A stretch of 64,000 nt of DNA, taken from positions 2,058,419 to 2,122,418 of the forward strand of contig MU058198.1 in the NCBI GenBank assembly GCA_013265495.1, given 5' to 3'. The translations under genes were made by a program, and so were the position numbers. Positions 4,801 through 43,400 of the stretch are shown here, one piece after another; position 1 is the stretch's first letter, and each line of letters opens with the position of its first letter. Under the pieces are notes generated by a model. The model worked only from the letters and a program-made list of their open reading frames with translations. It was not told where the DNA came from and searched no databases. The stretch is from Vicugna vicugna (Eukaryota).

Positions 4801-5201
4801 TTTTATGTGTAGGAGAATTGGCCTGATAGAAGTCACTTGCCATTAATGAAAGTGAAATCCTCTACATTATTTTAATTGATTTAATAGAATGGCTCTTTCT
4901 TAATGATATTTGAATAGACAACTTCATCTAACAAAAAACTATCTTGGGTGCATAATAGTGCACAATAGATATGTGTTGAAAATTCCAGTTCGAGATGTTA
5001 GTATTCCATTCTACTACCATGGGTTCCAGCTGTAAAGATTCTTTAGACCGAAAAAGAAGTAATCCTTGTTGGGAGCTCTATGGGTATCACCTTGCCAGCA
5101 TGGGCTAGAAACTTCAGGTTTTCTATCTCATCCATGTAACTGTGTGTTCAATGGAATAACTGACTTGGGTCTATTGCTAATGAATTACCCTCTGGATTCA
5201 G

Positions 5202-5389
5202 ATTAGGTCAAGAATTGGCTATTGTCCTCAATGTGACCCCATGCTGAACCACATGACAGGTCGGGAATTGCTGATCATGTATGCCAGGCTGCGGGGGGTC
5301 CCGGAGCCAGATATTTACATGTATGTGGAAACTTTTTTGCATTCAATGCACCTGGAAACCCATGCTGACAAGTACATCTACACATACAG
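5202..5389 (+). CDS. Gene 1 exon (188 nt): [36 protein letters not shown]...HADKYIYTY
   Basis: ggattcag| acceptor and ag|gtaaga donor; ABCA Q-loop region. Confidence 0.92.
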
Positions 5390-10249: not shown

Positions 10250-10291
<42 letters not shown>

Positions 10292-10662
10292 GGAATACTA
10301 TTCAGCCATAAAAAAGAATGGAATAATGCCATTTGCAGCAACATGGATGGACCTAGAGATTACCATACTAAGTGAAGTAAGTCAGAGAAAGAAAAATACT
10401 ATATGATACCAATTATATGTGGAATCTTAAAAAATGACACAAATAAACTTATTTACAGAACAGAAACAGAGTCACAGACATAGAAAACAAACTTATGGTT
10501 ATCAGGGGAGAAGTAGGAGGAAGGATAAATTGGGAGTTTGGATTTGCAGATACTACCTACTATATATAAAATAGATTAAAAAGAAAACAAGGTCCTACTG
10601 TATAGTACAGGGAACTATATTCAATACCTTGTATGGCCTATAATGAAAAAGAATGTGGAAAG

Positions 10663-10702
<40 letters not shown>

Positions 10703-13700
10703 CTGAATCACTATGCTGTATACCAGAAACTAACACAACATTATAAACTGACTTTATATTTAAATTTTAAAAAATAAAAAGGAGCATGCATGGAAGTACT
10801 AGAAAAAAATTAGATGAGTAGAGAACACAGTGATATACAAAGACAATTAGTGTGCTGGAGAGAATTTTTTAAGTAAACATCTCAGAAATACTTCACTATT
10901 AAGAACAAATAAACAACATAGAAAGTACAAGGGACATGGGGACTGGAAAGGAGGAAACAGAAAACCATCAACCAGAAATATAGGCAAGCATTCGAGAGAG
11001 AAAATAAGAGAGAGGCAAGGTAAAGACAAAGCAACACAACCATGAAAACAGTCCACAAAGAAAAAATAGCAAAGCCATAGAAGAGAACAAATACTGAAAT
11101 ATTATCATTCAAGAACATTTCCTGAGATAATACAAACCTACTTATTCAAAGGACAACCTGAAAAATTGACCCAACATTGTCAACATCAAGGAATACTCCA
11201 ATATAACTATTGTATTTTGTATTGCAATAGAGGTTGGGGGACCTTTGGATATCCAGATTAAAAGACAAGGAAAAGAAAGAAAATTTATAAGGGAAAGAAA
11301 TTTATATTGACCTCAGACTTTGTGTCAAAACTTCCTATGATAAGAAAAATGCAAGCCAGAGATCTGACATATAGACAAAGTGAATTTCAAGAACAAAATT
11401 CACAGTTATGAACACATAAGAATTCAGTGGCTATTGTTCCTAGTGGCTCTCCCTGAAGACTTACAAACAAAATTTCACATAGACTGAGAAATAATTGAAG
11501 AAGTTTCTGCATAAGAGCTAAAGGTGTGCATTCAATGTTTTTTACCTCTAGACTGAGGCCTAAATGAAGAGGATCCAAGTGATAGATTATTATGTAAATG
11601 AATATGTTTTAGAAATGTGTATAAAATAACAGTTATCAAAAACGGTAAGGAAGAAGGCAGAGGATACATGGAGTGTAGTATGCTTACTGAATGCCATTTA
11701 GGTGTTAAGTGGAAATAAAAAGGTGTTACTGTGAATTAGATGCTGGGAAGGGCAGTAAGAGGTTACTAGCATATCCAATGTCATTCTTACTAGGGATACA
11801 AAAGACAGTATCTTAAAAGGAAGGGACTATTTATGGGTATCAGCATAAAGATATTAGCATGAAGTTAACCGTTAGAACAAAAGCATATATTTTCTGTGTC
11901 AGAATTGTAAAAATTAAAGAATAAAGAGAACCAACTACATGATGAAGATATACACACAGACATATTTTATATATTTATATTTGTGTTTATAACTATACAT
12001 GTATATGTATAAATAATTTTTTAATTGGAGGAATGTAATTAAATATATTGTTACTTTCCATAAATGTAAATAGGCTAATTCCTTCATTAAGTGAAAAAAA
12101 TTTCTGATTAGATAATGAGCAAATCTATTTTTCTGATGTGTATTAAAAAAAAGGTAGTAAAAAACCTAAATTAGAGAGGTTAAAAATAAAGGAATGAGGT
12201 TCACACTGTCTTGCTAGTCCGTTCTCAACCTTTAGTGATTTGTTAAAATTTTTAAGCTTTATATTCTTACCAGCTTATGCCATCCACCTGTGTCTACCTT
12301 GTATAAGCAAATGCTCTCATCCTGATGCTGTCTGCAGATGCCTATCTTCCACCCCCCACCCCATATGGGGTTAGTTATTTGCCCTGAGTCTGCCCCATCA
12401 GAAAACTGATGGGATTAAGAAAAGCCAATAATTTGAAATTTATCCAGCCTTCTTACAGTAACAGTGAGAGTGGCATTCTTTCTGACTTGCTGTATCATAC
12501 AGGTGAAACTGAAGTTGGTATAACCACTTTTAAAAAGAGCAGTGGCCCAACAATTCCACCTACAGGTGTACCTTAGTTTCTTGCATGCACCTGTGGCAAG
12601 AAAACTAAAATAATATTTAAGTTAGCAATATTCACAATTGTCTGATAACCCATATGTCTATTAGTATAGCTGAATGGAAAATAAATCATGAAATATTCAC
12701 ATACCAGATTGCTGTTTAAAAGGAAAATGAATGAATTCTAGTTCTATGCAACCTCATGGATGAATCTTACACTGAGAGAAAGAAGAAAGAAAAGAATATA
12801 CACTAGATGATTCTATTAACACAAACTTCAAAAGTAGGAACATTCTACCTAAATTTTTAGGGGTACATGCCTGAAGACATTTAAAAAAGAAATGTCCAAA
12901 ATTACAATGAAGGTATTGGTTATTTTTTATGGGGCATAGAGGCTGGGAAGTGGCACATGTGCCCAGGTTACTGTCACTTGACCTAAATGAGGTGGTTTCA
13001 TCAGTGTTTGCTTTGAATAATTCATTAAATTCAGTGTTTAAAACATTTCACACACACAGAAAAGAGCTTTATGTGACTATGGAGACAATACATGCATTAA
13101 AATGCATATTAAGAAAAGCCACTTAGCATTATAAACATGTACGTTTTTCCTTAAAACATTTTAATCCCAGTTAATCCAATTTGCAATAATACACAAATTT
13201 GCCTGATAAGTGTAAACATATCTGTTTGTTCTAAATTAGAAATGGATACCACCCTCTCCCCTGCACTGTCCCAGTGTGTTCTTCCTCACCTGTGAAAGAA
13301 ACAGGCACACATGGCCCGATTTGGGTGATTTATATGTATGACTTCTTCTTTCACATGGTGTGTAATCATGCCCAGAGTGAGGAGGCCTTGTTCTGCTCTC
13401 CTCCCCATCAAACACACTGTCCGTGCATACATGCTCACACAAGAGTGAAAATCCTCCCAGTTAATATTTTCAGGACTACATTCAGAAATAAAGTCTTATA
13501 GCAACACTAGAACTGTAGAAGGGTCAGGTTTTTTTACATTGGGCATGTGAGCTGACAATTTTTTGTGCCAAAAAGCCTGCCCTCAATAACTGCTATGAAC
13601 TCCACATAATAAGACTTTCATCAGGAATAAATCTGCTGAAAAGAATTAACCATATCATGCATACCAAAGAGAGTGGATATTCAGTCATGTCCCCTTTTGT

Positions 13701-14414
13701 ATTAGCCACATCCACTCACCTTTCTATGGCATGTAATTAAGTATATATATAGCAATATTTTGGCAATTTTAAAAGAAAATCTGTAAGATGATTCAGCCAT
13801 CCTATCTTTCCTTTCTTAGGTAGTGTATTAAAGCAGGAGAATCAAAGGATCCTTAACTACTACATCCCCAGCAAGGACAATACCTGGGGAAAGGTGACTG
13901 TAAATTCATACCTTTCTATCATTACATGTTAAGAAAGACCAGTGATGGGAGAAGTATTAGATACTCAGGCATGTGGAGCAGAATTCTGGCAATGCAGGAG
14001 GAGCAGAGTCTTTAGGTTACTTTTCAAACACCCCTAGAGTTTAATTGCTTGGTTTCTGCTCCCTAAATCCCATTGTGAGTCCTTGTCCTTCAAGAGAATG
14101 AGGACAGAGAGCTGCCTTCTCTCAGTTTCTCAATTATCTATTTGTCCATTTTCTCATCCCCCTCTTCTGTGCCTTTTGTCCTCCACCATTAACTTGGCAG
14201 CAGTGGGAGGAAGTGGAAAAGGGACATCTGGCTTGGAGGCTGGAAGGGAGGACTGCAATGATAACTGCACTTTTTGTTGTTGTTGCTAAAGGTGTTTGGT
14301 ATTTTGGAGGAAGCCAAAGAGCAATTCAATTTAGAAGACTATTCCATCAGTCAGATAACGCTGGAGCAAGTCTTCCTGAGCTTTGCTAACCTACAGAACA
14401 CAGATGATTATTAA
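5202..14414 (+). CDS. ABCA3-like ABC transporter gene 1 (ABCA14/15/16-type), 3' part: join(5202..5389,5891..6061,6444..6634,13820..13893,14292..14414)
   Basis: The spliced translation is open and collinear with the ABCA3 NBD2/C-terminus: IGYCPQ (Q-loop), YSGGNKRKL (signature), [13 protein letters not shown] (Walker B/D-loop), [13 protein letters not shown] (H-switch), LEQVFLSFA. All introns are GT-AG with matching phases. Upstream exons lie before the window. Confidence 0.93.
5891..6061 (+). CDS. Gene 1 exon (171 nt): signature, Walker B and D-loop
   Basis: Long pyrimidine tract with aag| acceptor and ag|gtatga donor; [40 protein letters not shown]...IIITSH. Confidence 0.95.
6444..6634 (+). 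CDS. Gene 1 exon (191 nt): [33 protein letters not shown]...FIATTFP
   Basis: cccctag| acceptor and g|gtaaga donor. Confidence 0.95.
7395..7573 (+). mobile_element. tRNA-derived SINE (camelid Vic-1-like)
   Basis: Box A tagctcagtggta, box B ggattcaaacc, (AAAC)n and A-rich tail; perfect 16-bp TSD aagaaatggatataca at 7379-7394 and 7574-7589. Confidence 0.88.
8400..10240 (+). mobile_element. Old L1 5' UTR and ORF1 remnant
   Basis: A-rich ORF1-like sequence (cagtagactagacatggctgaagg, caaatcagggaagctcagagaac); degenerate. Confidence 0.7.
10250..10780 (+). mobile_element. L1 3' end with (CA)n at 10253-10289 and (TA)n at 10665-10700
   Basis: atggaatactattcagccataaaaaagaatg...gcagcaacatggatggacctagag. 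Confidence 0.87.
13820..13893 (+). CDS. Gene 1 exon (74 nt): [25 protein letters not shown]
   Basis: ctttcttag| acceptor and aag|gtgact donor; phase fits both neighbours; resembles ABCA3 GSVLEDEHQGMVHYHLP. Confidence 0.9.
14292..14414 (+). CDS. Gene 1 terminal coding exon: [40 protein letters not shown]
   Basis: aag| acceptor; ABCA C-terminal DYSxSQxxLEQVFLxFA motif; TAA at 14412-14414. Confidence 0.93.
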
Positions 14415-22413: not shown

Positions 22414-22473
22414 ATGGATTTGTTGGCACTCAGGCAATTTGCAGTGCTCCTCTGGAAAAATTTTACCCTAAAG
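22414..22473 (+). CDS. Gene 2 first coding exon: [20 protein letters not shown]
   Basis: agaATGg Kozak context, ABCA xLLWKN motif, aag|gtgtgt donor; candidate acceptors at 22349 or 22409. Confidence 0.9.
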
Positions 22474-25400
22474 GTGTGTAAAAGTATCCACAGAAAATGT
22501 TCATAAATGCCTATTTGTTGCAGTTCAGATTTTGTGTGTGGGTGTGAGTGGGCACATGCTCACATGTGCACGTTTTTGAAAAATCAGTTCCTGGACTGTA
22601 GGTGGCTCTTCTAAATCTATTAAGCTGAGTTAATCAATAGTATAGTTGACCTATAAGAAAGTTGGGAGGGGAGCTGGAGGGATGATGTGAGATAGTCCAG
22701 GAAACACTGGCTGTTTCAAAGTGAAATTGAGAGAAACTTAATAGAACTAACCATTTGCACTGAATATGTACTCTTAAGTTAATTAACATGATCTTTTTGT
22801 TCCTCTTTTAGAGAAGGAAGTTCTTTAACTTAATATTGGAAGTCTTAACAATATTAGTGTTTCCAATGATGCTTTTGCTATTCCGTGCAATTATTGAGAT
22901 GAATGTTACTGGACCTTACAATTTTACCTCTCAACCCATCAGTACTCTGCCTTCTTTCCTCCAAAATCCTGAAGAGTGGAAATTGATTTATGTGCCTTCT
23001 AATATTGATGTAGTAAAAGAGATCACTGAAAATGTGAAGAGGAATCTAAACATCAGTATAAAAGGTTAGAAATTAAGGTTTTCTGTAAAGCTTATTATGA
23101 ATTTATTGTTATTTTTGATGGAGCTAACAATGAGGGAGATTAGAATAAAGTTGGAGTCACATTCCTCAATTTTAAGATGTATAACTGTAGTTATAAAGAC
23201 AGTATAGTATTGGTGGAAGGATAAACATGCAAAGCAAAGATCTACACAAACACACCAAAATATTTTTTAACAATAGTGCAAAAGAATTCAGTGGAAGGAT
23301 AATCTTTAAAACAAATATTTAAACAAATACTGACCAATTGGACATTAATGGCTAAAACAATGAAATCTCACACCTTATGCAAAAATCACATCAAAATGGA
23401 TCACAGATCTAAAAGTAAAATGATGAAACATTTAGGATAGAACATAGCAGAAAATCTTTGTAATGCTCAGTTGAAGAATTCTTAGGCATGACATTAAAAC
23501 ATCATCCATGAAAGAAAAAAAATTGATAAACTGGACTTTTGATATATAATTTTATTAGTGGTTGCTCTTGTAGTTAAATATGCATATTTAATTTTTCATA
23601 GGTTACTTAGAACTGTCATATTACGACTTTATCATAATGTCAGATGTTTACCACTTTATAGATCCCTTTATATTTCCCACTTTGTTTTAGTTTTCATATC
23701 TATGTAAGTTGAAAACTTCACTAGAAAATGATATAATTCACACAAATATTTTTAAAGAACTTAAGAAGAGAAAATTATTTACCCAGATGTTTACCATAGC
23801 TGTGGTTCTTCCTTCATTTTCAAAGTTCCAAGTTCCTTCTAAAGATTAAGATTTCTTATTTTCCTCCCTTACACTATACACAAAAATAAACTCAAAATGA
23901 ATCAAAGACTTAAACATAAGAGAAGATGCAATAAACCTCCTAGAAGAAAATATAGACAAAACATTATCTGAACATACGTCTCAAAAATGTTCTCCTAGGG
24001 CAGTCTACCCAAGCAATAGAAATAAAAGCGAGAATAAACAAATGGGACCTAATGAAACTTAAAAGCTTCTGCACAGCAAAGGAAACCATAAGTAAAACAA
24101 AACGACCACCTATGGAATGGGAGAAAATTTTTGCAAATGAAACCAACAAAGGCTTGATCTCCAGAATATATAAGGAGCTCAGATGACTTAATAAGAAAAA
24201 AACAAACAACCCAATCCAAAAATGGGCAGAAGACCTTAACAAGCAATTCTCCAAGGAAGACATACAAATGGTCAATAGGCACATGAAAAAATGCTCCATA
24301 TCACTAATTATCAGAGAAATGCAAATTGAAACTACAATGAGGTATCATCTCACACCAGTCAGAATGGCCATCATTCAAAAATCCACAAATGACAAATACT
24401 GGAGAGGCTATGGAGAAAAGGGAACCCTCTTACACTGCTGGTGGGAATGCAGTTTGGTGCAGCCACTGTGGAAAACAGTATGGAGATTCCTCAAAAGACT
24501 AGGAATAGACTTACCCTATGACCCAGGAATCCTGCTCCTGGGCATATATCCAGAAGGATCCCTACTTCAGAAGACACCTGCACCCCAATGTTCATAGCAG
24601 CACTATTTACAATAGCGAAGACATGGTAACAGCCTAAATGTCCATCAACAGATGACTGGATAAAGAAGAGGTGGTATATTTACACAATGGAATACTATTC
24701 AGCCATAAAAACCGACAACGCCATTTGCAGCAGCGTGGATGTTCCTGGAGAATGTCATTCTAACTGAAGTAAGCCAGAAAGAGAAAGAAAAATACCATAT
24801 GAGATCACTCATCTGTGGAATCTTAAAAAAAAAACATAAATACAAAACAGAAACAGACTCATAGACATAGACTACAAACTTGTGGTTTCCCAGGTTGGGG
24901 GTGGGAAGGGACAGACTGGAAGTTCAAAATTTGTAGATACTGACAGGCATATGTAGAATAGATACATAAGATTATACAGTATAGCACAGGGAAATATATA
25001 TAAGATCTTGTGGTAGCTCACGGAAAAAAATGTGACAATGAATATATGTATGTTCATGTATAACTGAAAAATTGTGCTCTACACTGGAATTTGACACAAC
25101 ATTGTAAAATGACTGTAACTCAATAAAAAATGTTTTAAAGAAAAGATTTCTTGTTTTCCTTCTTTCTGAAAAACTTACTTTAACAATTTTTTAGAGCAGG
25201 TCTACTAGTAATGAATTCTCTTTGTTTTCTTTCATCTGAGAAAATCTTTAATTTAATTTCACTCCTGAAGATTATTTTCATTTGGTACAGAATTCTGGGT
25301 TGACACTATTTTCTTTCAACATTTAAAAAATATTTGCCACTTTCTTCTGATCTCCTTGATTTCTGGAGAACCTGCAGTTTATGAATCCTCCTATCCCTAT

Positions 25401-28400
25401 AAGTAGTGTCATTCCTCTCTGGCTCCTTTCAAGATTTTTTTTTTGACTTTATTTATCAAAAGTTTGATTATGATGTGTCTGTAGATTTCTTTTGGCTTAT
25501 TCTGTTTGTGGTTCACATTCTGTTTTGGTTTCACTGAGCCTTTTGAATCTGTAATTTTAATGAAATTTGGGGACTATTCAGTAATTATTTCTTAAAATTG
25601 TTTTTCAACACAGCCTTCTTTCTCCTTTCCAGGACTAAGATGAGAAGAATGCTCAACATTTTGTATTGTCACACAGGTGGTTGATGTTCTCTTCAGCTTT
25701 TTTCCAACCTTTTTTTTTCCTCTATTGTTCAGATTAGGCAGTTTCTACTGATCAATCTTGAACTACTCTTTCCTCTGTTTCATTTACATGTGTATATACA
25801 CACACATACATACGTACATACATACATACACACATACACACACATATACATACATATATATATATGTACAACTATTGAATCAACAAATTAGGTTTGTTTT
25901 CCTTTAAAGCACAGTTTAAAATGATCACCTCCTGATTTATCTTAATTTCTTTAAAACAACTTTTTTGAGATATATGCACATCCCATACATTCACCCATTT
26001 AAAGTGTACAATTCAGTGGCTTTCAGTATATTCACAGAGTTGTGGTAACATTAGCACAATCAATGTTAATTTAAGTATAGTCAATTTACAATATTAGTTT
26101 CTGGTGTACAGCATAGCAATGCAGATATTTACATATAAATATATATTTATTCCTTTCACATTCTTTTTCATTATAGGCTATTATAAGATTTGGAATATAA
26201 TTCCTTGTGCTATACAGTAGGACCTTGCTGTTTATCTATTTTATGTAGAGTAGTTAGTATCTGCACATTTTGAACTCACAATTGATCCCTCCCCTACTCC
26301 TTTCCCCCATAGGAACCGTAAGTTTGTTTTCTGTCCCTTATTTGTGTCATTTTTTTTAGATTCCACATATAATGGATATCATATGGTATTCTTTCTCTCT
26401 CTGGCTTCCTTCACTTAGTATGATGATCTCCAGGTCCATCCGTTTTGCTGCAGGTGGCACTAATTCATTATTTTTATGGCTGAGTAGTATTCCATTGCAT
26501 GGGTGGGGTGGTATATGTGTTATATATATATAACAATTGCTCATTGCCAAAAAGTATCCCATTGTATGTATGGATACATTACATTTAGTTGGTATATCCT
26601 TCATCAGATGATGGACATTTAGGTTGTTTCCACCTTTTGGCTATTATAAATAATACTGCTGTGAACATTAATCTATAGGTTTTATATAGACATATGTTTT
26701 CATTTCTCTTAGGTATATACCTAAGAGTGGATTGAATAGGTCATGTGTTAACTCTAGTTTTTAACTTTTTCTGGGACTGCCACACTGTTATCTAAAGTTG
26801 TTATACCATTTTACATTCTGGTCAGCAGTGTATGAGGGTTCCAACTTTCCTGCATCTTCACCAGCACTTCTTCTTGTCTGTCTTTTTGATTATAGTCATC
26901 TCAGTGGATGTGAAATGGTGTCTCATTGTGATTTCAATTTGCATTTCCCTGATCACTAGTGATTTATCTTTATATGTGTTTTATAATGATTACTATTTAA
27001 AATTGTAGTAAAATTTTATAAAACACCTAAAATTGTTTTATTGATTTATAATCATTTTACAATGTTGTGTCAAATTCCAGTGTAGAGCATAATTTTTCAG
27101 TTATACATGAACATATATGTATTCATTGTCACATTTTTTTCTCTGTGAGCTACCATAAGATCTTGTATATATTTCCCTGTGCTGTACAGTATAATCTTGT
27201 TTATCTATTCTACATTTTGAAATCCCAGTCTATCCCTTCCAACCCCCACCCCCTTGGCAACCACAAGTTTGTATTCTATGTCTATGAGTCTGTTTCTGTT
27301 TTGTATTTATGTTTTTAGATTCCACATATGAGTGATCTCATATGGTATTTTTCTTTCTCTTTCTGGCTTACTTCACATAGAATGACATTCTCCAGGAACA
27401 TCCATGTTGCTGCAAATGGCGTCATGTTGTCAGTTTTTATGGCTGAATAGTATTCCACTGTATAAATATACCACCTCTTCTTTATCGAGTCATCTGTTGA
27501 TGGACATTCAGGCTATTTCCATGTCTTGGCTATTGTAAATAGTGCTGCTATGAACATTGGGGTGCAGGTGTCATTTTGAAATAGGGTTCCTTCTGGATAT
27601 ATGCCCAGGAGCGGGATTCCTGGGTCATATGGTAAGTCTATTCCTAGTCTTTTGAGGAATCTCCATACTGTTTCCCACAGTGGCTAATACCTAAAATTGT
27701 TTTGAACCCCAAATATCCATTAAGTAATTGTGATACCAATATTTGAGAAACCGTGGCCTTAAGTTTACACTATTTGGATAGCCTTTTGTCCATATAAAGT
27801 AGTATCTCCTCTCTCAGAAGGGTAATCTGATGTTTTACTTAAGTGAACAATTTTATCTCTCTACAGTTCAAGGCTTTTCTTCGGAATCTGAGTTTGAGGA
27901 GTATGTTAAGTATGACTATGGATCTTACAAAATACCTAAAATTGTTTTGAACCCCAAATATCCATTAAGTAATTGTGATACCAATATTTGAGAAACTGCG
28001 GCCTTAAGTTCACACTATTTGGATAGGCTTTTGTCCATATAAAGTAGTATCTCCTCTCTCAGAAGGGTAATCTGATGTTTTACTTAAGTGAACAATTTTA
28101 TCTCTCTACAGTTCAAGGCTTTTCTTCGGAATCTGAGTTTGAGGAGTATGTTAAGTATGACTATGGATCTTACAAAGTGCTGGCTGCCATTGTTTTTGAC
28201 TGTGACTTCAAAAACAGTGGTGATCCTCTGCCGCTTCAGGTGAGAAAGTTGTATTCCAAGATTTCTACATAAATAGCTTTCTAGTAATTGCACTTCCAGT
28301 TTCCAGGGTTTTAATGAATTTCATATTAACCCTCTTTTATAAGTGAAGAAACTAATTTTCCCAAGATCAAACTACTAGTATACAATAGGACAAGAATATA

Positions 28401-31400
28401 AGTCCAGATCTGAGTAACTTTAATTTCTGTGTTCTTACCTACTGCATCATGCTGATAAGGGCAGAACTGCATCTTCCACTCACAAGACCTTAGATTAATG
28501 GCACACTCTAACTACTTGTGCAGTGCTTCTGAGTTGTACAAGGGGTAGTAAAACAGGTAAGCCTCAAAGCAGATGCATCTTCACTAACAGACAAGCAAGC
28601 ATGGAAAGATGTTTTATCTTTGAATGAAACACAGAATTTAAGTCATTTCATAAATCTCTAGAGAAAACTGTTAAGGTTCAGCCACGTTGATTCAGATTAG
28701 GACATTTATAGGCACTGAGAAAGAATCTGATAACTGCATAGCCCATGAGGAGAGAAAGAGACAATGCTTTGACCTTGGTGTCTCCTTAGTCGATCTTATA
28801 GATGTTCCATCCTGGTGGTGATGAAAATAAAAGGGCAGTCTGCAACAGCTAGACCTGGAGCCAAATTCTTTAGATCACAGATGCTCGTCAGTAGAAGGCA
28901 AAATTAATAAAACCACTAGTAGGTTAGTACATATTTTTTCTGTGAGCCCCATCCTTCCATGACTCTATTCATCTGTGCCAGCTTCCATTTACTAAGTCAG
29001 AATTATCCATATGCTGATATGGATTTAGGTTCAACATTTTACATTGGCTCAAAGTGTCTTCAGTGACGTTTCAAGTTTCATTCTCATTGCTGATTGTGTT
29101 TGTGTCCCCAGATATTTGAACTAGAATTCTGACATCAGAAATTCCCCAAATTTTGTGTCCAGGTGCTTGTTCTGTTTTTGCCCAGCTTTGTTGAGATATA
29201 ATTGACATATAATACTGTGTAAGTTTACTATGTACAATATGATGATTTGAAACATGTATATATGTTGAAATGATTGCCCTAATAAGGTTAGTTGACATTA
29301 TTCTTCACCTCACAGAATTACCATTTTGTGTGTGTGGTGAGAATATTTAAGATGAGTAAGTCCTGGGGATCTAATGTACAGCATGCTGTTTGGTCTACTT
29401 TGATGAATTTTTAAACAAACCTTTTGATCTCTGTTGATGACTCGATGTAAAGCATAGAGCTTCTAATATCTACCAGCTTTCCCACATCTTAGATGACTTT
29501 CTTTACAGGCTCTTTTGTCCACCTACAAGTGCCACAAGGATCTACGTAAACCTCACATATGATCACTGTCCTGATAAAAAGACCTTAGTGATGGTCATTA
29601 CCAAGGCTTTTAGAATGCAGTTTCTTATTTGCTGTGGACATGACCATAAAAAAAATTTCCCACTAGGTTTTCTTTCTGCTACTTTGTTAGCGTTCAGCCT
29701 ACTGGGAACATTTAAAAAAAAAAAAAAACCTTAGTGACTTCCCATTGCTCCAGGCTCATGTCCAGAGTGCTTTGCACAAGGCACATGGCTATCAGTATCC
29801 TAGTGCTTGGATATCTCTGCCACTCCTTAACCATTCTTAGTGCTGCAGCTTAACTGCCAGATGCACCATATTATTTTTTGCTTCTAGGCCTTTGGTCACT
29901 TTTTCTCTACTGTAGGAATGCTGCTATGAACTCCCATTCAACTTCCACACCCATTCCTTTTCTGTCTTTTCATCATAACCTGTCTTCATCATAACTTGTC
30001 CGTATTTCTATTAGTCAAAATTCATATGGGAGCACAGACACTACTGTAGGTATTTCAACAAAAGGGTTTTAATAGAAGGAAATATTTACACATTCACATT
30101 CTAGATTTTAGTCACTCTTGACCATCACATTAGAGGGTCTAGTTTGCTCACCTGTTTAGGTGAACCATAACCTTCTTGATTAGTAGAGTGTTATCCTTAG
30201 GTGAAATTTAATAGGCATTTTCAGTTTCTTCTCTCAGGCCTCCTGCTTCTCTCAGCCTCTGGTAAGCAGATGTCTTACTAGGGCATTTACAGTAGTTGTC
30301 ACTTCCTGTTTATCAGGTCTAAATGTAAGTGCACATGCAAAGGACTTAAAATATTTGAAACAATTCTGTAAAAGAATAACAAAGTTGGAAGACATACAGA
30401 ACTTATTATAAGACTAAAATAATCATTACAGTGTGTTACTGGCATATGATCAACAAGTATATCTATGAAACAGAACTGAAATCCCAGAAGTAAATGCTCT
30501 CTAATACAGTCATTTGACTTTTGACAAATGCACCAAAGAAATCTGATGAGGAAAGGAAGATGTTTTCAATAAACAACGTTACAATAATTTGATATATGTG
30601 GAAAACAGGAATCTTGAGCTCACTCACACTATGTGCAAAAAATTCATGATGGATTATAGATTTAAATGTCAAAGCTAAAACTAATGCATTTATAGTAAAA
30701 CATAGACAAATATCACCTTTACTTGGGGGTAACAAAAGTTTTTCAGGTCACACAAAGCAATAACCATAGAAGAAAAAATTAATGGATTGGCTTTTATTGA
30801 ACTTTAGAAACTTTTTATCATCAAAAGACACTGTTGACTTCTGGTCTGGGCAAGATGGTGTGGACTCATTTCTCCCTGTCCTTCCTCACTAAGCACAGCT
30901 ATAAACTCTGGACATAATGCAGAGGCAAAGAAAAACTCTGAAAGGTGACAGGAAATGTGCAAATCGGTTAAGGTCCCAGGCCTGGAGGAGCAACATAGGG
31001 GCACATACCTTACTGTTCCACACCCAACAGAGGGCAACCAAGACCCAGCATTGTCTGTCTTCCAGCCTGGCAATAGAACACAGCCCAGTTAGGTTCATTT
31101 CACTCCACGGTCAGATGGAAGCATTTCTGACATTTGGTGACTCCAGTACCCCCCGCATGAGGATTGCTAACAATTAGTGGCCAGGAAAATACTTTCCTTC
31201 CCCACCAGGCCTGAGATGCCTTCCCCTGCCATTGTATACTGAGGCATAAGAGTAGGAGTAAGAGGGATTCATACATTAGTAGCCCAGTCTAGCAAGCCTC
31301 TTCATCTCCACAGGCCTAAGACACCCCTCATGGCAAAACACTGGAGTCGGTGGGCCACTAGGACCATCAGTAGGGACACCACACATCTCTCACTTTAAAT

Positions 31401-34400
31401 CAAAAGCTAGAAATTATTAGGCTTAGTGAGGAAGACATGTCAAAAGCTGAGATAGGCTGAAAACTAGGCCTCTTGCACCAAGCAGTTAACCAAGATGTGA
31501 ATGCAGAGGAAAAGCTTTTGAGGGAAATTAGACTCCAGTGCTACTCCAGTGAACACTCTAATGATAAGAAAGTGAAACTGCCTTGTTGATAGGGAGAAAG
31601 TTTTAGCAGTCTGCACAGAATAACAGACCAGCTACTACATTCCCTTAAGCCAAAGCCTAATCCAGACCAAGGCCCTAACTCTCTTCAACTCTGTGAAGGC
31701 TGAGAGAGATGAGGAAGCTGCAGAAGTAAAGGTTGAGGCTAGCAGAGGTCAGTTCATGAGGTTTAAGGAAAGAAGTCATCTCCACATCGTGAAAGTACCA
31801 GGGGGAGCAGCAAGTCCTGATGTAGAAGCCGCAGCAAGTTATCCAGAAGATCCGGCTAAGATAATTAACGAAGGTAAGCTACATTCAAAAGCAGATTTTT
31901 GATCTGGGTGAAAAGCCTTATATTAGAAGAAGATGCCATCTAGGACTTCTGTAGCTGGAGAGAAGTCAACGCCTGGCTTCAAAGCTTCAACGGACAGGCT
32001 GACTCTGCTGTTAGGGGCTAATGCAGCTGATGACGTTAAGTTGAAGTCAAAGCTCACATACTATTCCAAAAATCCTAGAGCCTTGAAGAACATTTTTTGG
32101 CGGGGAGAGCCTTTAAGAATTATGCTAAATCTACTGATCTTGTTTTCCATAAGTGGAACAACAAAACCTGCATGACAGCACACCTATTTACAACATGGTT
32201 TACTGAATATTTTGAGCCCACTGTTCAGACCTAGTGCTCAGAAAAAAAATGTTTTCAAAGTATTACTGCTCATTGACAAAGCACTTGGTCACTGGTGAGC
32301 GCTGATGGAGATGTAGAGTAAGATTAATGTTGCTTTCATGTCTGCTAACACAACATCCATTCTCCAGCCTGTGGATCAAGGAGTAATTTTGACTTTCAAG
32401 TTTTATTATTTAAGCAATACATTTCTTAAGACTGTAGCTACCATAGGTGGTGATTCCTCTGATGGATCTGGGAAAAGTAAATTGAAAACCCGGAAAGGAT
32501 TCAGCAATCTAGGTGCCACTAAGAATATGCATGATTCATGGGAAGAGGCTGAAATATCAGCATTAACAGGACTTTGGAAGAAGTTGATTCCAACCCTCAT
32601 GGATGACTTTGAGGGACTCAAGACTTCAGTGGAGGAGTTCACTGTAGATATGGTAGACATAGCAGGAGAACTAGAAGTAGAAGTAGAACTTGAAGATGTG
32701 ACTTAGTTACTGCATCTCATGATAAAACTTTCATGGATAAAGAGTTGCTTCATACAGATGAGCAAAAGAAAGGAGTTTTTTGAGATTGAATCTGTTCCTG
32801 GTGAAGATGCTGTAAAGATTGTTGAAATGACAACAAAGGATTTAGGATGACATAAACTTAGGTGTTAAATGGTGGCAGGTTTGTGAGGATTGAGTCCAAT
32901 TTTGAAAGAAGTTCTCTGGGTAAAACACTATCAAACAGCAATGCATGCTGCAGAGAAATTGCTTATGAAAGGAACGGTCAAATCAGTGTGACAGACTTGC
33001 TGTCTTATTTTAAGAAATTGTGCCACAGCCACCCCAACCTTCAGTAACCACCACCCTGATCAGTCAGCAGCCATCAGCAAGGAGGCAAGTCCCTCCACTG
33101 GCAAAAGATTACAGCTCAGCGAAGGCTCAGATGGTGGTCGCCGAAGGCTCAGATGGTGGTTAACATTTTTTAGCAATAAAGTATCTTTTTAAATTAATGT
33201 ATGTACATTTTTTGACATAATACTATTACACACTTAATAGATTACAATATATTGTAAACATAACTATCATGTGTACTGGGAAACCAAAAAAATTCACGTG
33301 ACTTGCTTTATTGCAGTACTCACTTTATTGTGGTGGTCTGGAACCAAACCCACAATATCTCTAGGTCTGCCTATATCTGACAATATGCTAGTATCTCAGA
33401 TATTTTTAAAAGTCCTACAGCTCAATAGTAAAAAGACAAGTAGCTCAATTTCAAAGATATAAATAGGCAGTCCTCCAAAGGAGGCACACAAGTGGCCAGT
33501 AAAGATGTAAAAAAGTGTGCAAGTCAGTAGACATCAGGAAAATACAAATGTAAACCACAGTGAGACACTGCTTCCTGCTTATCTAGAAAGGCTAAAATTA
33601 TAGTCAGACAGTATCACGTGCTGGTAATCATGGGAAGCTACGGTTGGTGGGGCTATAAAATAGTATGGTCAGGTTAGAGAAAGATCTGCCATTTGTTCAG
33701 ATAAAACTAAACATACACCTACCCTATGATCCATCAGTTGCACTTTAATGAATTTACCCTAAAGAAAAAATAAACGATGTTTTTATACACACACACAAGA
33801 GTTTTACAGGAATGTTCTTAGCAGCTTTATTCATAATATCCAGAATTAGCAGCAGCCAGGTATCCATCAACCAGAGAATTAATGAGCTCTGTTATAGTCG
33901 TACTGTGGAATACTTCTCAGTGACAAAAAGGAATTAACTACTGAAAAAAGAAACTACGTTAATGAATTTCAAAAACATCATGCTAAGTAAAAGAAGCCTT
34001 ATATGAAAGAGTACAATACTGTTTGATTTCATTTATATGATATTTTACAACAGGCAAAATTAATCTGTGGTATCAGAAAAATTATATATATGAGTGTGGT
34101 CAGGATCAGCTGGGAAAGGACATGAGAGAACTTTCTGGGTTGATGTTTAATTTTGATAGTAGTTTGGGTTACAACAACTACAGACTTGTTAAAACTCATG
34201 TACAGTTAAGATTTGTACATTTTACTGTATGTAAATTTTACCTCAAATAAGAAATGAAAAGAAATATTGAATTCTACTAGATGCTGAACTGTTCATTTGG
34301 TGGACATGTACTGAAGTTGAAGTCTCTTTCTTTGCAGTGCATCCAAAAATTAAATATTTTGATCGATAAGCATAAAGTATATAGATGTTATATATACAGG

Positions 34401-37400
34401 TTTATATAGATACATACATTTAAATTTATGTGTCTGTATAGTATAAATTACATACACATACCTCATTTTGCCTTTTTTATGCAAACGATAGCATTCTTTT
34501 CAGTCACTAAATTTGTTTCTTTTTGAACCGTAAATCCATTCTTCTATACTTTGCTCTTTGATGCTGTAGCTACATTTCTGCTCTTTCCGTCAACTATATG
34601 TGAGACTCTGCTGATAAAGGCAGACAGGGGCAAGCCTGTGGGAAGAAGGAACTTGAGCTTTCCTATTGGCTTTCTGTCTGCTTGTAGTTGCTTTGAATGA
34701 CATCCCAGCAATCTCTCTCTTTTTTTTTTTTTGACAGTAGCATGTTCTCCCTATAGCAGCAGCCAAATATATTTTGCAGATTGCCCAATACTTTTAAAAA
34801 TCAGGCTAACACACCCTCACAAAGATAAGCAGCACTAGGCAACTGGAACTTTATCTCAGATGTCCAGGTTCTGATCCAAAAGCCCCTTCTTTCTAACTGT
34901 GAGACAGAGTACTAGCTGACTTGTGCCCTGTCCTCAAAGGTTTGATTTTTTTCAGCTGCACAGATGTCTCATTTACGTTTATAACTGTTAATAATTCCAA
35001 ACTCTTGCTTTTGTTCCCTTAGTCCTAAGGCCAGTGGCTGCTTCCTGCTGTCACTATCTGATACCGTAGAGTTCTCTTATCTCTAAGTTATCTAGCAGGA
35101 TGTCTGTTTTCTGACTGTACCTTGAACCAGATACAAAACTGTGTATTGTGTATAGATATAATAGTTTTGCAGTCTCCTATATATGAGCAATTAGGTTAAT
35201 TCCAATTTACTGTATTACCACCACAAATAATGTTTCAACAAACTTGTGCATATGTGTTTTTTTCATACTATTTGAAGTATATATTCCAAATCTGCTCCTG
35301 AAAGTAGGATTGCTGAATCAAACAATAAATGCATATGTAGTGTAACATTGCCAGATCTACATTATAGTTGTTCCATTTTGCATCCAGAAAGCAATGTTTT
35401 AAGTGCTGTTTATCTACTGCCTTGCCAACAGAGTGTGTTGTTATATTTTTGATTTTTCCAGTGTGATAGGTAAGAAAGATATCTCTGTAGTCTCAATTTG
35501 CATTTATTTCAGTGTGTGACATTGAGAAGACTTTGATATATTTATGGGCCATATTTATATCTTGCTTTTGTGAACTGTCTGCATTTTGAGAGAACTTCAA
35601 ATGTAGATAAGATTGGAATGTATTTGTTTTGCTTAGTTACAGTCATTTTCAGGCACTCAGAATCACTTTGACACCAGATGGATCCCATCTTTCAGATCAT
35701 ATGGTTTCCCAACTGGATTTAACTTTCCTTTATTTCTAATATTTGCTTTTCAGGGGTTTTTTTGGTATTATAGTTTATTTCCTATTGCTACTTCTAGGTA
35801 AAATATCATCTGCGTTTTGTTAGGATACAGAGGACTATCTTGTGGCCAGACAGGATAGGTTGGAAAACATCGTTCCTTTTTCCTAATTACCCCTCTCCAG
35901 GACCCAGGAACCCAGATCATAATGATGGAGGAAGTCCTGGTGAGCAGATCCTTAAGTATACTCATTTTGTTATCACAGTTGCATATATGTATACACACAC
36001 ATGCTTATACATGTATATATATGTACATGAATATATATATTAAATCAGATTATTCTTAACTTGTAGTAATTTTTAAGTTAATTATATTATAGTAAAACTA
36101 CTTCTCAATATTATACACTTGGTAAATCTAACATACATGTATAGAATATATATACACATTCATATATGTATTATGCTTTATCCTCTTTCAATTATTATAC
36201 CAATATATTTGCCTTTATGTAGTTGTGATTTTGTGTAGCAAATTTTCAGTAGAAGAAAAAAGCTGTGCACATTATAGCATTAACAACAAAAATTGGACAC
36301 AGTATATCCAGTAAGAGAATAGATGAATCTATTAGACAATCATTGAAAATAATCTTTATGAAGTCTGTTGAGAAATAATTTAAACAGAATCTACAAGTGC
36401 CTATATCAATTAGCTAGATAGAGATGGGTGAGAATTATTCCACACAGCGGGACTATGATCATTAACACATGTATAACAGGATGCCACATTCAGGGAACTA
36501 CATGGTCTTTTGTTTGTTTCCTTTTTGTAGCTAGAATAGAGGGCTATGTGGGAGGTTATTAGAGATGAGACTAAGAGACAAACAGGTCATAAAGACCTAA
36601 TGTGTAAAGTGAAGGAGTATGAAATTTCTCCTGGGAGTTATGAGAGACAGAGGCATAGCAATATTTAACATGAATAGGAGAACTGATATAAAAGTGAATA
36701 CATCTCTCCAACTGATGACACTCATAGATGTCTTTGGTATTTGTTTATATCTGAACACAGAATTTTTGTTTTGTGCTATTGCTGAACAGAGAAGACTGTG
36801 ACTTATATTTCACAATTTTTATAATTGATCAAGATATTTCAGAGAATGGCTTTTTTGCCTCAGATGTCTGGATTTTATTTTATCTTTTCACTTCTGGACT
36901 TCGGGTGGAATATTACTTGAGAACAGGCAGTTTACCCTTATGTTTCCTTAATACCATACTATTTGTGGGGAAACATTATAAAGAGAAGGGAGGATAAGGA
37001 CTACTTGCTTGGTAACATTCATATTAAGGAGGAGTAAATGAAAGGAGACAAGAGTATGAAGACTAAGAAAGATTGACAAGGAAGTAAGTAGAAAATTAAG
37101 ATATCTATTACATTAATCAAAGGAGGAATGGGAAACTATGCTTGATATTTCAGTTTTATCACCACAAAAGAACTTTTTTGATATTTTAAAACTTAAACAC
37201 AACAATCCCTCCACAGAAAAAAAAGTTTCCATAAAAACTGTGAAGCATAGATAAAGGAGGTTAAAGATGATACAAAGAAAAAGAAAGATGTCCAATGCTC
37301 TTAGATCAGAAGAATTTATATTTTTAAGAGGCAATACTACCCAAGCAGAATCTACAGTTTTAATACAATTTCTGTCAAAATACATGACATTTTTCACAGA

Positions 37401-40400
37401 ACTAGAACAAATAGTCCTAAAATGTATATGGAACTAAAAAAGACCCCAAATTGCTAAAGCAATCTTGAGAAAAAAGAACAAAGCTGGAGTTATCACACTC
37501 CCTGTTCAGACTATACTGCAAAGCTACAGTAATCAAAACAAAATGGTACTGACACAAAAACAGACACATAGATCCTTGGAACAGAACAGAGACCCCAAAA
37601 TAAACCCACATACATATGGTTAATTTATCTAGGCAAGAACATAAAGTGGAGAAAAGGAAGCATTTTCAAAACTGGTACTGAGAAAACTGGAAAGCTGCAT
37701 ATAAAGCAATGAGATTAGAACATTTTCTCATACCATATATAAAAGTAAGTTCAAAATGGATTAAAGACCTAAATGTAAGACCTGAAACCATAAAACTCCT
37801 AGTAGATACTGTAGATAGGATACTCCTTGACATAAATCATAGCAATAATTTTTGGATCTGTCTCCTAAGGCAAAAGAAATAAAAGCAAAAGTAAACAAAT
37901 GTGACCTAATGAAACTTAAAACTTTTGCACAGCAAGGGAAACCAATGTCAAAATGAAAATACAACATACAGAATGGGAAAAAATATTTGTGAATGATGTG
38001 ACAAACAAGGGGTTCATTTTCAAAATATACAAACAGCTCATACAACTCAATATCAATAAAACAAACAACTCAATCAAAAAATAGGCAAAAAGCCTGAATA
38101 CACATTTTTTCCAAAGGTGTGCAGATGGCCAACACACATGAAAAGATGCTCAACATCACTAATTATCAGAGTAATACAATTCAAAACAACAGTGAAATAG
38201 CATCTCAGAATGGCCATCATCAAAAAGTCTACAAATAAGAAATGTGGCAAGGATGTGGAGAAAAGGGAACCACATTGTACACTGTTGGTGGGAATGTAAA
38301 TTAGTGTAGCCCCTACAGAAGACAGTATGGAGGCACCTCAGAAAACTAAAAATAGAACTACTGTTTGATTCAGGAATTCTACTTCTGGGTATAAATCTGG
38401 AAAAAATGAAAACACTAACTGGAAAAAAATACATGTCCTCTAGTGTTCATGGCAGCATTATTTACAATAGCCAAGATAAGGAAACCACCCAAGTGTCCAT
38501 CAATATATTTACAATAGAATATTACTCAGCCATAAAAAATTTAAAAAGGAAACTCTGCCATTGCAGCAATATAGATGGTCCTGGAGAATATTATGCTTAG
38601 TAAAATAAGTGAGGCAGAGAATGACAAATAATGTGTCATATCACATATGTGAAATCTAAAAAATAAAAACAAACAGATGTTCATAGCAAAATAGAAACAG
38701 ACTGACAGATATAGAAAACAAACTAGTGGGTACCAGCAGGGAGAGAGAATTAACATGGGATTACAGGATTAAGTAATACTATATATAAATTGGATAAGCC
38801 ACAGGATATATTTTATAATACAAGGAGTTATAGCCATTATTTTGTAATAAGTCAATGGAGTATAATCTATAAAAATACTGAATCACTATGCTATACACCT
38901 GAAACTAACACAATGTTGTGAATCAACTATACTCCAGTAAAAACACAAAAAAACAAAAACCAATTTGAGTTTATCCCAGGTGAAACAGCATCACCTAATG
39001 TTTTTAAAAATTATTATTTTTCAGTTCTCACTTATTTTATCAATGCACAAAACTCCAGATTTGTAAATAAAAAACACATTTCAAGTGGAAAAAATGGTAA
39101 AAGAAAAGCAAATTAAATCGTAAACTGCCTTTTAGTTTTATGGATGACTTAGTTTCAGTGAAACATTTTCCCTTGGGGGCCATACTGTATTATTCGCTAT
39201 AACACGTCTGTTGAGCTTCATTTGTTAACTTTACATTTCCATGTCTTCATCTTCCAATATTTAACTAAATCTGCATTCTTTTTGTAAATATGAATTGTAT
39301 TTAGCAAGCCTACCTGAAACTTTCATTAAATATATTTAATTTGGGGAAGATGTGAATCAGATTCATCTGAAAAAGTAGCCCTTACTTTTATGTCAAAACT
39401 ATTACAGGTTTTCAGAGTAACTGTGTTCAGTTGGCCATGATACAACAGTAAATTTAAGTTATGTGTGTTACAAGCTATGACTGACTTGAATTGCCTTGTT
39501 CTTTTTTGTGTCTGAGCCATTGATTAGTCTGTTTTATTTGATATTGTTTTATCATATAGGGTACATAAGAGAAGGGTTCCTGGCTGTACAGCATGCCTTA
39601 GATAAGGCCATCATGCTGTACCATGACAGCAATGCTAGACAGAAGCTGTTTGATGGTATTAGCATCTTTGTACAGAGATTTCCATACCCAGCTTATTCTC
39701 ATGACGGATTAATTTGGCTCTCTGGTAGTTTCCTCCCTCTGATGTTCATACTCATGTTCTCTCCAACTGTACTTTCCATCGTGCGATCCATTGTATGGGA
39801 AAAAGAAAACAGATTGAAGGTAATCCCAATTATTTTCTGATAAAGTTTTTATAAAGATTTTTTTTTGGCCTGTAGAACTCTGTTGTATGGAGAGTTGGAT
39901 TATTTCTGCATATTCAGCATTGGTGGTTAGTTGTTACATCTCATAACAGCAAATTACATCCCAGGAGCAAAAACTACAGAGCATGAAGAGTGAACATTGA
40001 TGCCACCTATCATTTATCCAAACTTGCATATTTTCATAAGCAAACTCTCTCTGAGGAGCAGCAAAAAGATAAAACCTGAGGGCAAGGAGGGGGGACAATC
40101 AAAGGTCACTAGAGGAATTTGATGTCTCTAGTACCTAAAGTAACAGTGAATTTTAAACACAACTTAACTCCTGGCTAAGTTAATATAAATCCTTACATTG
40201 TAAGCCCGTTTACCTTCATATTTACTCCTAGATAACAATTTCAACAAAAAATTGTAAGGGACACCAAAACTAACAAAAAACATGGTCTGCGGAGGCAAAT
40301 TAACTGTCAGAATCAGACTCAGATAAGACACAGATGATGGAAATATTAAAGAAGGAATTAAAAATTATTAAAAATTATTATGATTAATAATTTAAGGCTC

Positions 40401-43400
40401 TAAAGGGAAAGGTAGATGTGTCCAGGATCCTTAAGACCTTTTCTGAAATTTCTACAGTTTATGCACAGTATCCACACTTACCATTTAGAGAATGATTTAT
40501 ATCAGTATAGGGAACAGTTTACCCACCAAGTTTCCATATACCAGCCAAAGACCAATTTTGCAAACATCCTTCTTAAGAATAGTAGTCTCAAGGCTTCTGT
40601 GTTAACTCTTTTCTGCACTGTAAGATAACATGCAAGTTCAGATAGGTAATGCAGAGAGATCAAAGCTATAAGGATTCAAATGGAATTATTAGAAATAAAA
40701 CACATGCTAACAAAAATGGAGAATACCTTTGACAGGCTCATCAGTAGGCTTGACCATGATGAGGAAAGAAAGAAATGAATACAAGACAGTTGAAATTATA
40801 CAAACTGAGATGCAAAGAGAAGAGAAAATGTAAAATTCTAGAAGAGAGCATCCAAAAGGTATATGACATTATCAAATGGTATAACATGTATATAATTGAA
40901 TCCTATAAAGGAAATGAGAGACTAGAGCTAAAGAAATAATGATAGAATTTTCCAGAATTAATGATAGACATCAAACCACAGATCAAAGAAGCTCAGAGAC
41001 CACAAACCAGGATAGTACCCCCCACAACACACACACACACCTAGACATATTACATATTATATTCAAACTGGTGAAAACCAAAGACAAAGAAAATGTCTTA
41101 AAAGCAACCAGAGGTGGGAAAAAGACACACTGCCTACAAGGAACAAGCATAAGAAGTATAGCTGACTTCTGATTAATAGTTGAATTTTCTAAAAGGAACA
41201 TAGACACATTTTTCTAATACTCCTGGAAGTAGAATATAATGGAAAAGAGATCTTAATCTCAATATTTCAAAGTTTAATTTGAGATATTTTGCCTTTTGGT
41301 CAAATACTAGATGCAGTATTGAAAAAAGATCTCTGAACTCAGGAGAAAAATATTTTAATGCCAGTGCTGCCTTTACTAACTGCATCATTTTGATCAACAC
41401 ACTTGACTGTCTCAGCCTTGATTTTTCACTTTCATAAAATAGAGATGATATTACCCATTTATATAGGTTTTATCAAAATTAGAAAAATGTATATGAAAAC
41501 AATATGAATTGCTAATATATGTAATATTTGATTTGTGTTCAATTTCTTACAGGAGTACCAGCTCACAATTGGAATTAAAAACTGGATGCTCTGGGCTGCC
41601 TATTTTTGCACATTCTTTTTTTTTTATATCTTTATTATTGCTTCAATATGTGTGTTATTCTTCACCAAGGCAAGTGTTTAGTTTCATGTCCAACTGAAAT
41701 ATAATTAGTCACATATATAATATTACATTTCAGTAGGTACTAGAAAATTTAAGAAGTAAAAATAATAGGACGAATTATTTTACTAATAAATTTAATTTAA
41801 CCCAATATATTATTTCAATATGCAGCCAATTTAAAAACTGAGATATTTTACATTCTTTTCTGTACCAAGTACTTCAAACTCCAATATGTGTTTTATATGT
41901 ACAGCACATCTCAACTTATATTTTCATTAGAAAGACTTGATCTGTATTGACACTGCTTTAATTTTCTAATTTAAATTAAAAATAACTAAAATTAAATGAA
42001 AGTAAATTCAGCTCCTTGGTCATACTAGCTACATTTCAAGTTCATAAAAGCCACATGTGGTTAATGACTATGATGTATCAGGCATCTTAGTTCTAGCTGA
42101 TTGCACCTGCTGCAGCTATCCTGTGAGAAGAAAAAAGTAATCATAGTGTGAACTGATGGGTCTCCGGTTGCCAAAAGATGAAAAATGTCTTTTATTGTCT
42201 TCACTGTGGAAACTCAGAGGCTGCTGAATCTCTGAGAAAAATGTAAATCCTTCTGTGAGAAGTAAGTGATTTACTTAACTTTCCATCTCATTGAGTTTCA
42301 GTCACTGGGCAGCGATCGGTTTCATTAGGGCCATTATTTTCTATATCTTCCTTTGTGTTTATATGATTCTGCTTATTGTGTATTTTACATGACATAATAT
42401 TTTATTGTAGATTATCCGTGAGCCACTCCTCCGCTACAGTGACTATAGTTTCATCTTTATCTTTCTTACGTGTTATGCCATCGCTTCGATATTCTTTGCC
42501 TTTATGATTAGCACATTCTTCAGTAAAGGTGAGTCTAAGACTTCTCCTCTAACAGAATTACTGTTTAATGGACCAGAATAGGATCATATTGGGAGTTCCT
42601 TCCAGCCATCTTGTGTCTAGTCTTGGTTTGCATTTTAACTTAGAAGATGAATTATGCATGAAATGATTGGACAGGAGGTAGAGGGTGTGTTGAAACTTAA
42701 TGTGGCCCAATACATATATAAAAAGAGACTATAAAGTAAGATTGTTATCAGCTAGAACTTTAGAATAAATTAAACAATGCTTCCTGCAGAAGTTGACTTC
42801 AAATCACTTTTAAAAACAAATCAAGGGATGAAGATATTTGTTCATTCATTTATTCAGCATGTCCTTTGTGCACTTCCCATGTGACAAGACTCTATATCAC
42901 ATGCATAAAGACAAAGGAAAATTGATTCTCTATGAAATCCTGCATGAGAAAATAGGTGTAACCAGATAACCCCAGATTGGTCTATTAATGGTTTTGTAGA
43001 AATAATTCTCTACTAACAATTTTAATAACTTCCAAAAATTAAGGAATATTTCTTTTTATTTGGACCACAAGTATTAACCATTTTTTTCTCCTGTATTTTT
43101 CTTCTGTACTGAATCATCAAAATATCATCCCTATTAAATCATTTAGGGTATAAACATAGTTTTACAGTTAAGACTTTTAAACATCACAGGTAATTTAATT
43201 TTTAATATATTATCACAGTTATAATCAGCTGATTGGTTTTCACAATTCACAGTTGGTATTCACATTTGTGCAGAAAAGAATTAACATTGCAGACCTGTGA
43301 CTCCTATCTTTAGAAAGTCCTACTAGAAAGGTTGGCCTTTGGCTGGTATCTAAGAATTTGAACTTTTGGAAGATTTCCTACCATTCTCTAAATAATAAGA

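Follow-up and report, generated by a model that had tools for sequence, protein, structure and literature searches.

Does coding exon 3 of an ABCA3-like transporter gene in Vicugna vicugna have one 3′ splice site or two? In the window (the whole 64-kb stretch of assembly GCA_013265495.1 analysed here), the end of intron 2 and the start of exon 3 stand twice in immediate succession, and the question is whether the chromosome carries both copies, in which case the upstream acceptor could lead transcripts to an early stop codon, or whether the assembler wrote a single stretch twice. The genes and exons concerned are these:

22414..58183, + strand: gene 2, a camelid ABCA16-type ABCA3-like transporter, with ten coding exons within the window
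5199..14411, + strand: last coding exons of gene 1, a close paralogue of the P0107/P0024 family, ~90% identical to gene 2
22812..23064, + strand: coding exon 2 of gene 2, 253 nt, the upstream partner of the exon 3 junction
28112..28239, + strand: coding exon 3 of gene 2, 128 nt, with donor GT at 28240, fitting alpaca P0002 residues 105-149

The ten coding exons of gene 2 splice to 524 stop-free codons, and the idea that gene 2 is an existing pseudogene was rejected because these exons are open, the remainder of the gene lying outside the window. Exon 5 matches human ABCA3 (E 1.7e-20), and exon 2 is 100% identical to the Vicugna pacos ABCA3-like protein P0002, while its identity is 96-98% with Camelus proteins and 85% with cattle proteins that bear the name ABCA16; these protein matches identify gene 2 as a South American camelid ABCA16-type gene. 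No Pfam family was found in any of the five single-exon or L1 peptides searched, and the identity of gene 2, like that of the L1 described below, rests on protein sequence matches. Judged by these matches, gene 2 best resembles named ABCA16, with an ABCA3-like fold and a position in the ABCA14-16 cluster, and may be either ABCA16 or a recombinant ABCA15/16. Genes ABCA14-17 are described as predominantly testis-expressed and little studied beyond rodents (PMC4492045). A literature search on camel and ABCA16 found no papers, alpaca ABCA16 under other names being outside its scope.

Two adjoining ABCA16-like genes, ~90% identical, are present in both Camelus and Vicugna. The last two exons of gene 1 are 96% and 100% identical to P0107 (tblastn). 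The exon-3 peptides of gene 1 and gene 2 are the same or nearly the same, whereas exon 2 is only 82-85% alike, a combination that suggests patchy gene conversion between the paralogues. The gene-2 exons at 39560-39819 and 54934-55115 encode D217 and Q466; both residues are shared with the alpaca paralogue, while the orthologues of alpaca and camel show E and K at these positions. T512 of gene 2 occurs in none of the 13 other proteins checked; this pattern could reflect gene conversion, or paralogue reads mixed into the assembly. Coding exon 6 (41553-41669) ends in a GC donor, and several annotated camelid models skip or extend it. The NBD2 exons of gene 1 (5199-6636) are at least as close to the gene-2 protein as to that of gene 1, while the last two exons (13813-14411) match gene 1 only, which gives gene 1 a mosaic 3′ end. 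The Camelus ferus gene-1 model P0011 falls apart midway through exon 3, suggesting that this exon fails in other assemblies too. Between the two genes lies a GC-rich, CpG-island-like stretch (15300-16400) in which a non-coding first exon may end near 16076, and this stretch is likely the promoter of gene 2. Intron 3 holds a long interspersed element (31440-33330), which we take to be Tigger-like DNA transposon sequence.

The assembled repeat and the splicing features that it creates are as follows:

27686..27930, + strand: copy 1, comprising the end of intron 2, the AG at 27865-66 and the first 64 nt of coding exon 3
27931..28175, + strand: copy 2, with the AG at 28110-11, running on into the remainder of exon 3
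27752/27997, 27754/27999, 27766/28011 and 27782/28027: positions at which the copies differ (copy 1/copy 2)
27969..27974, + strand: candidate cryptic donor, which would close an in-frame 102-nt exon (27867-27968) and leave a 143-nt intron
27989..27991, + strand: TGA, reached only via the upstream acceptor combined with the 28240 donor

The two direct 245-bp copies are gap-free and 98% identical (TRF score 954), a match far outside chance expectation. Their four differing letters, at unit offsets 67, 69, 81 and 97, are all intronic. The 60 nt before both AGs are identical, and exon 3 is repeated over its first 64 nt. The description in the initial annotation is thus exact for the assembled sequence. 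That much concerns the sequence as assembled; the presence of the repeat in the chromosome is doubtful. There is no N gap at the copy boundary (27930/27931), nor any N in the 64-kb window. A protein search with the 53-codon frame that spans the junction (lengths of 29-93 aa) found no match, a weak result that carries no evidential weight.

Splicing from the first AG to the donor at 28240 gives a 373-nt exon in which TGA is codon 146, 248 nt before that donor. A stop codon more than ~50-55 nt upstream of the last junction marks a transcript for NMD. Translation of the spliced frame reproduced the 373-nt exon and stop codon of the initial annotation, and its argument that the product is an NMD substrate agrees with the 50-55-nt rule, conditional on use of the upstream acceptor, because the stop then lies far ahead of the next junction. 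Skipping of exon 3 as a rescue is ruled out by the frameshift that it causes. The candidate donor at 27969 matches the U1 consensus at 6/9 positions, by a crude count.

The left edge of the repeat coincides with an L1 insertion:

27040..27685, − strand: L1 fragment, 5′-truncated, consisting of the ORF2 end and 3′ UTR, its cut end adjoining copy 1
27022..27039, + strand: left copy of the target-site duplication, 18 bp, 17/18 identical to 27686-27703 and 27931-27948

The fragment matches human L1 ORF2p residues 1152-1274 (E 2e-19 and 1e-16). A sibling L1 copy (24461-25128) aligns with it up to 27685 and then extends past that position, which makes 27685 the truncation point. The fragment has no poly(A) run and ends at the poly(A) signal, directly on the target site. 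In a contig of public runs X1 and X2, the flank 26994-27015 is followed at once by the 245-bp unit, with no L1 between them; the three differences in this contig would assign it to the paralogue, and with it an empty site is seen and the target-site duplication confirmed. Hence the locus displays the 5′ truncation, the target-site duplication and the empty site in a relative that are expected of an L1 insertion, and lacks the poly(A) tail. The repeat starts exactly at the L1 cut end and its first 18 bp are the target-site duplication, so a duplication coupled to the L1 was the initial reading; public DNA then changed it. That the duplication is older than the L1 was rejected, the copies being too similar.

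Public runs were searched with a query covering 27660-28260, sampled as 41 words, and 24 runs were listed. At least half of the words are held by 14 of the 24 (share 0.76 in two, 0.66 in one and 0.63 in eleven), and no listed run exceeds 0.76. For comparison, a run with copy 2 only is computed to reach 0.67, one with both letter sets but no junction 0.78 and a carrier of the duplication 0.95, the first two figures assuming a pruned path beside the L1, as the contigs show. Lower shares, 0.15-0.37 in X15-X17, X19 and X20 and 0.00 in X21-X24, were left out of the analysis; those of 0.20-0.24 match the 0.24 expected from the spliced exon alone. For four of the 24 runs (DNA runs X1, X2 and X5, and RNA run X18), contigs were compared over 27890-28600, with 32 of 63 pieces listed. 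Depth over 27890-27913 is zero in all four, and among the pieces listed none of the four holds a junction contig or a joint copy 1/copy 2, the absence of a contig being no proof. Across 28109-28250, where a junction would branch, X1 and X2 each have a single unbroken contig. Logan contigs are described as simplified graphs (10.1101/2024.07.30.605881). The contigs of all three DNA runs lack gene 2's own 27931-27965, which must exist, so a weak junction path may likewise have been pruned.

The variable part of the unit is present in X1 and X2 in three versions, namely the paralogue (depth 8.7 in X1 and 12.2 in X2), copy-1 letters, with all four on one contig (7.3 and 12.5), and copy-2 letters (5.9 and 10.1, obtained by subtraction). 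Among the pieces listed for X5 there are only the paralogue and copy 2, with no copy 1, and an X5 contig is identical to copy 2 over 27969-28138. The copy-1 letters thus behave as real heterozygous variants, carried together on one contig in two of the three DNA runs. Sequencing error as the source of copy 1 was rejected because it is present in both X1 and X2. The shared part has a depth of 11.2 in X1 and 16 in X2, close to what a single locus shows in the vicinity; at the next bubble the gene-2 versions total 11.1 and 20.1. Relative to paralogue depth only, the duplicated part is 1.3-1.85 times higher in these runs, the ratio for the shared part being 1.3. Fitted haploid depths are 5.6 (X1) and 8.0 (X2), with each copy at about half depth, noisy values taken from other animals' contigs. 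A Poisson fit to 12 depths per run, a rough likelihood computed from contig means, put alleles ahead of a heterozygous duplication by 37:1 and of a homozygous one by 256:1. At 28251/28260 there are two gene-2 versions in X1 and X2 and one in X5. X1 and X2 differ at three listed places and one loose-end letter and are perhaps not independent animals, and all depths and contigs come from public runs rather than from reads of the assembled animal. Rooted with the paralogue, the four differences split evenly, two being derived in each copy.

RNA contigs link exon 2 to exon 3. In X18, from reproductive system, two deep contigs (221 and 301) make this join, both of mixed consensus and compatible with both paralogues, and the 90%-identical paralogue of gene 2 appears to be transcribed there as well. 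This run has no cover over 27890-28081, its exon contigs lie inside the repeated 64 bases, and the animal is not known to carry copy 1. A further contig, present in all four runs, matches only at 28096-28155 and diverges on both sides; it comes from a more remote sequence whose exon begins alike, probably another cluster member. Neither a repeated exon-3 start nor the poison peptide occurs in any of proteins P0001-P0113, a weak observation as gene predictors would avoid both.

Taken together, these data make it probable that the repeat represents two parental alleles of one stretch, set in tandem by the assembler. The chromosome would carry a single copy, the assembled animal would be heterozygous, and copy 1 is probably the second allele. 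The assembler's join may have kept both alleles in tandem after the contig broke at the L1 cut end, beside an exon nearly identical in the neighbouring paralogue. Exon 3 would then have one acceptor and normal splicing, and the 'poisoned' allele probably does not exist. The depths of the two letter sets in X1 and X2 are similar and sum to one locus, as expected of alleles, and the two derived letters in each copy are the pattern expected of two old alleles. Alpacas have ~36% guanaco/llama ancestry (PMC7331169), which makes divergent allele pairs plausible in South American camelids. Neither mark of a true tandem duplication, a junction-spanning contig or raised depth over the shared part, was found in the contigs compared. 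Mis-assembly of two haplotypes, which the initial annotation had named as the alternative to a duplication, is therefore the better supported of its explanations, given the allele-like letters in public DNA and the lack of a junction contig. Heterotype false duplications of this kind are marked by half depth and single-copy k-mers, with 7-24% on the same scaffold (PMC9516828).

Several observations point the other way, namely the absence of an N gap, the higher depth relative to the paralogue, and a number of differences (4 in 245 bp) that is high for ordinary heterozygosity (P 0.007-0.036 at 0.3-0.5%). At the junction, 8/10 positions also match the pre-L1 flank; such microhomology is expected of a random end point in ~0.3-0.4% of cases (the match was spotted post hoc), and it is easier to square with a biological join guided by homology than with a blind one. 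Alternatively, the duplication could be real, rare and recent, produced by unequal exchange or a template switch between divergent copy-1-type and copy-2-type alleles. Such an allele would have two acceptors, and part of its transcripts would take the upstream one and enter NMD. The allele-like pattern in X1, X2 and X5 fits this reading equally, as the carrier need only be the assembled animal, and the gap-free boundary and the microhomology agree with it. It is nonetheless unlikely, because it demands a rare event in one assembled animal that ended exactly at the L1 boundary, and the junction words are in none of the 24 listed runs. Moreover, the microhomology is to the L1-free flank, yet single-copy chromosomes appear to carry the L1, since the words of 27931-27965 are missing as if pruned beside a repeat.

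Coupling to the L1 would place the event in target-primed reverse transcription, during which 245 bp of flank were copied before a switch back at the microhomology, with the product surviving as a polymorphism. The left breakpoint falls exactly where the L1 has its 5′ junction and the target-site duplication begins, the flank as it stood before insertion supplies the microhomology, and locally templated sequence and small tandem duplications are known at L1 sites (PMC11702581). The ages disagree, however: the fragment differs by ~6% from its sibling copies and the two copies by 1.6%, so that ~15 copy differences are predicted and four are seen (P 0.0006, although the siblings may overstate the age). 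Copy 1 is absent from X5 and from the runs with a share of 0.63, which would require its loss from most chromosomes; the X1 and X2 depths disfavour a carrier by the same 37:1; and both derived letters of copy 2 recur in X5, which has one copy. A duplication as old as the L1 and inherited with it is thus not what these data contain, and this origin is highly improbable. That one copy is gene-1 sequence drawn into gene 2 by the assembler is extremely unlikely and, on sequence comparison, largely refuted: X1 and X2 show a paralogue without a difference over 28109-28250, and D217 and Q466 match the alpaca paralogue rather than the orthologue, but within 172 bp the paralogue's intron departs from copy 2 by nine letters and two gaps, and the letters peculiar to the paralogue at unit offsets 12, 33 and 35 are in neither copy.

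Were the duplication real, the choice between acceptors would decide its effect. Of two alternative acceptors the upstream site is generally favoured, significantly less so under exon definition, and long flanking introns reduce the preference (PMC9225289); intron 2 of gene 2 is ~5 kb. Most internal exons are <300 nt (PMC3467050), and the 373-nt exon is larger than this usual size. Use of the candidate donor at 27969 is possible and would keep the reading frame. The initial annotation had suggested that the allele could be 'hypomorphic or null'; given a real duplication, a leaky allele would be plausible, whereas a null is unlikely in view of exon definition, the candidate donor and the paralogue, so that the allele would more likely be leaky than null. 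The close paralogue would probably buffer a leaky allele and blunt the phenotype. A real, L1-made duplicated acceptor segregating in camelids, its 245 bp copied from the L1's own flank at integration, is very unlikely. If it were true, transcripts would be lost to NMD, or the 27969 donor would create the 143-nt intron and, by an insertion, lengthen the first extracellular domain of this sperm lipid transporter by 34 residues, and the birth of an exon and an intron would be seen as a polymorphism. A real duplication would also be a clean experiment of nature on the competition between identical acceptors separated by 245 nt under exon definition, and the gene, from a livestock group, probably encodes a lipid transporter of the sperm membrane. 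If the repeat is instead two alleles in tandem, as is probable, it warns that an assembly slip beside an L1, in a near-identical gene pair, can mimic a hidden loss-of-function allele, and variant calls and gene models at exon 3 in GCA_013265495.1 are not to be trusted.

The locus can be compared with four known systems. By its exon 2 and exon 5 matches, gene 2 resembles members of the ABCA14-16 cluster, described as ABCA3-like and mainly testis-expressed (PMC4492045, PMC2329642), and spliced contigs are likewise found in the reproductive-system run X18; unlike the cluster described there, camelids have two adjacent ABCA16-like paralogues ~90% identical. L1 insertions with locally templated DNA, as portrayed in PMC11702581, share the 5′ truncation, the 18-bp target-site duplication, the T-rich nick site and a repeat that runs from the 5′ junction, whereas here the repeat seems younger than the age of the L1 would allow and was not seen together with it in other animals. 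Identical splice-site copies beside an authentic site are also known from F7 intron 7, where a VNTR holds identical donor copies that are functional yet silent (PMC1557585), and from ATP2A, where a tandem duplication gives a weakly spliced new intron (PMC3265369). F7 concerns donors, where acceptors are at issue here, and in ATP2A the duplicated sequence is entirely exonic, so that the outcome of acceptor competition in gene 2 cannot be read directly from either case. The 143-nt intron that the candidate donor would create is akin to intron gain by duplication (PMC3265369). The cases of heterotype false duplication set out by Ko et al. 2022 (PMC9516828) differ in that the present repeat is much smaller (245 bp), has no N gap and is gauged by depth from other animals' contigs. 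With them it shares adjacent near-identical copies that have their own k-mers and about half depth when heterozygous, as well as a false partial exon gain, and the ATP-binding gene family is named there among the paralogue-rich cases (PMC9516828).
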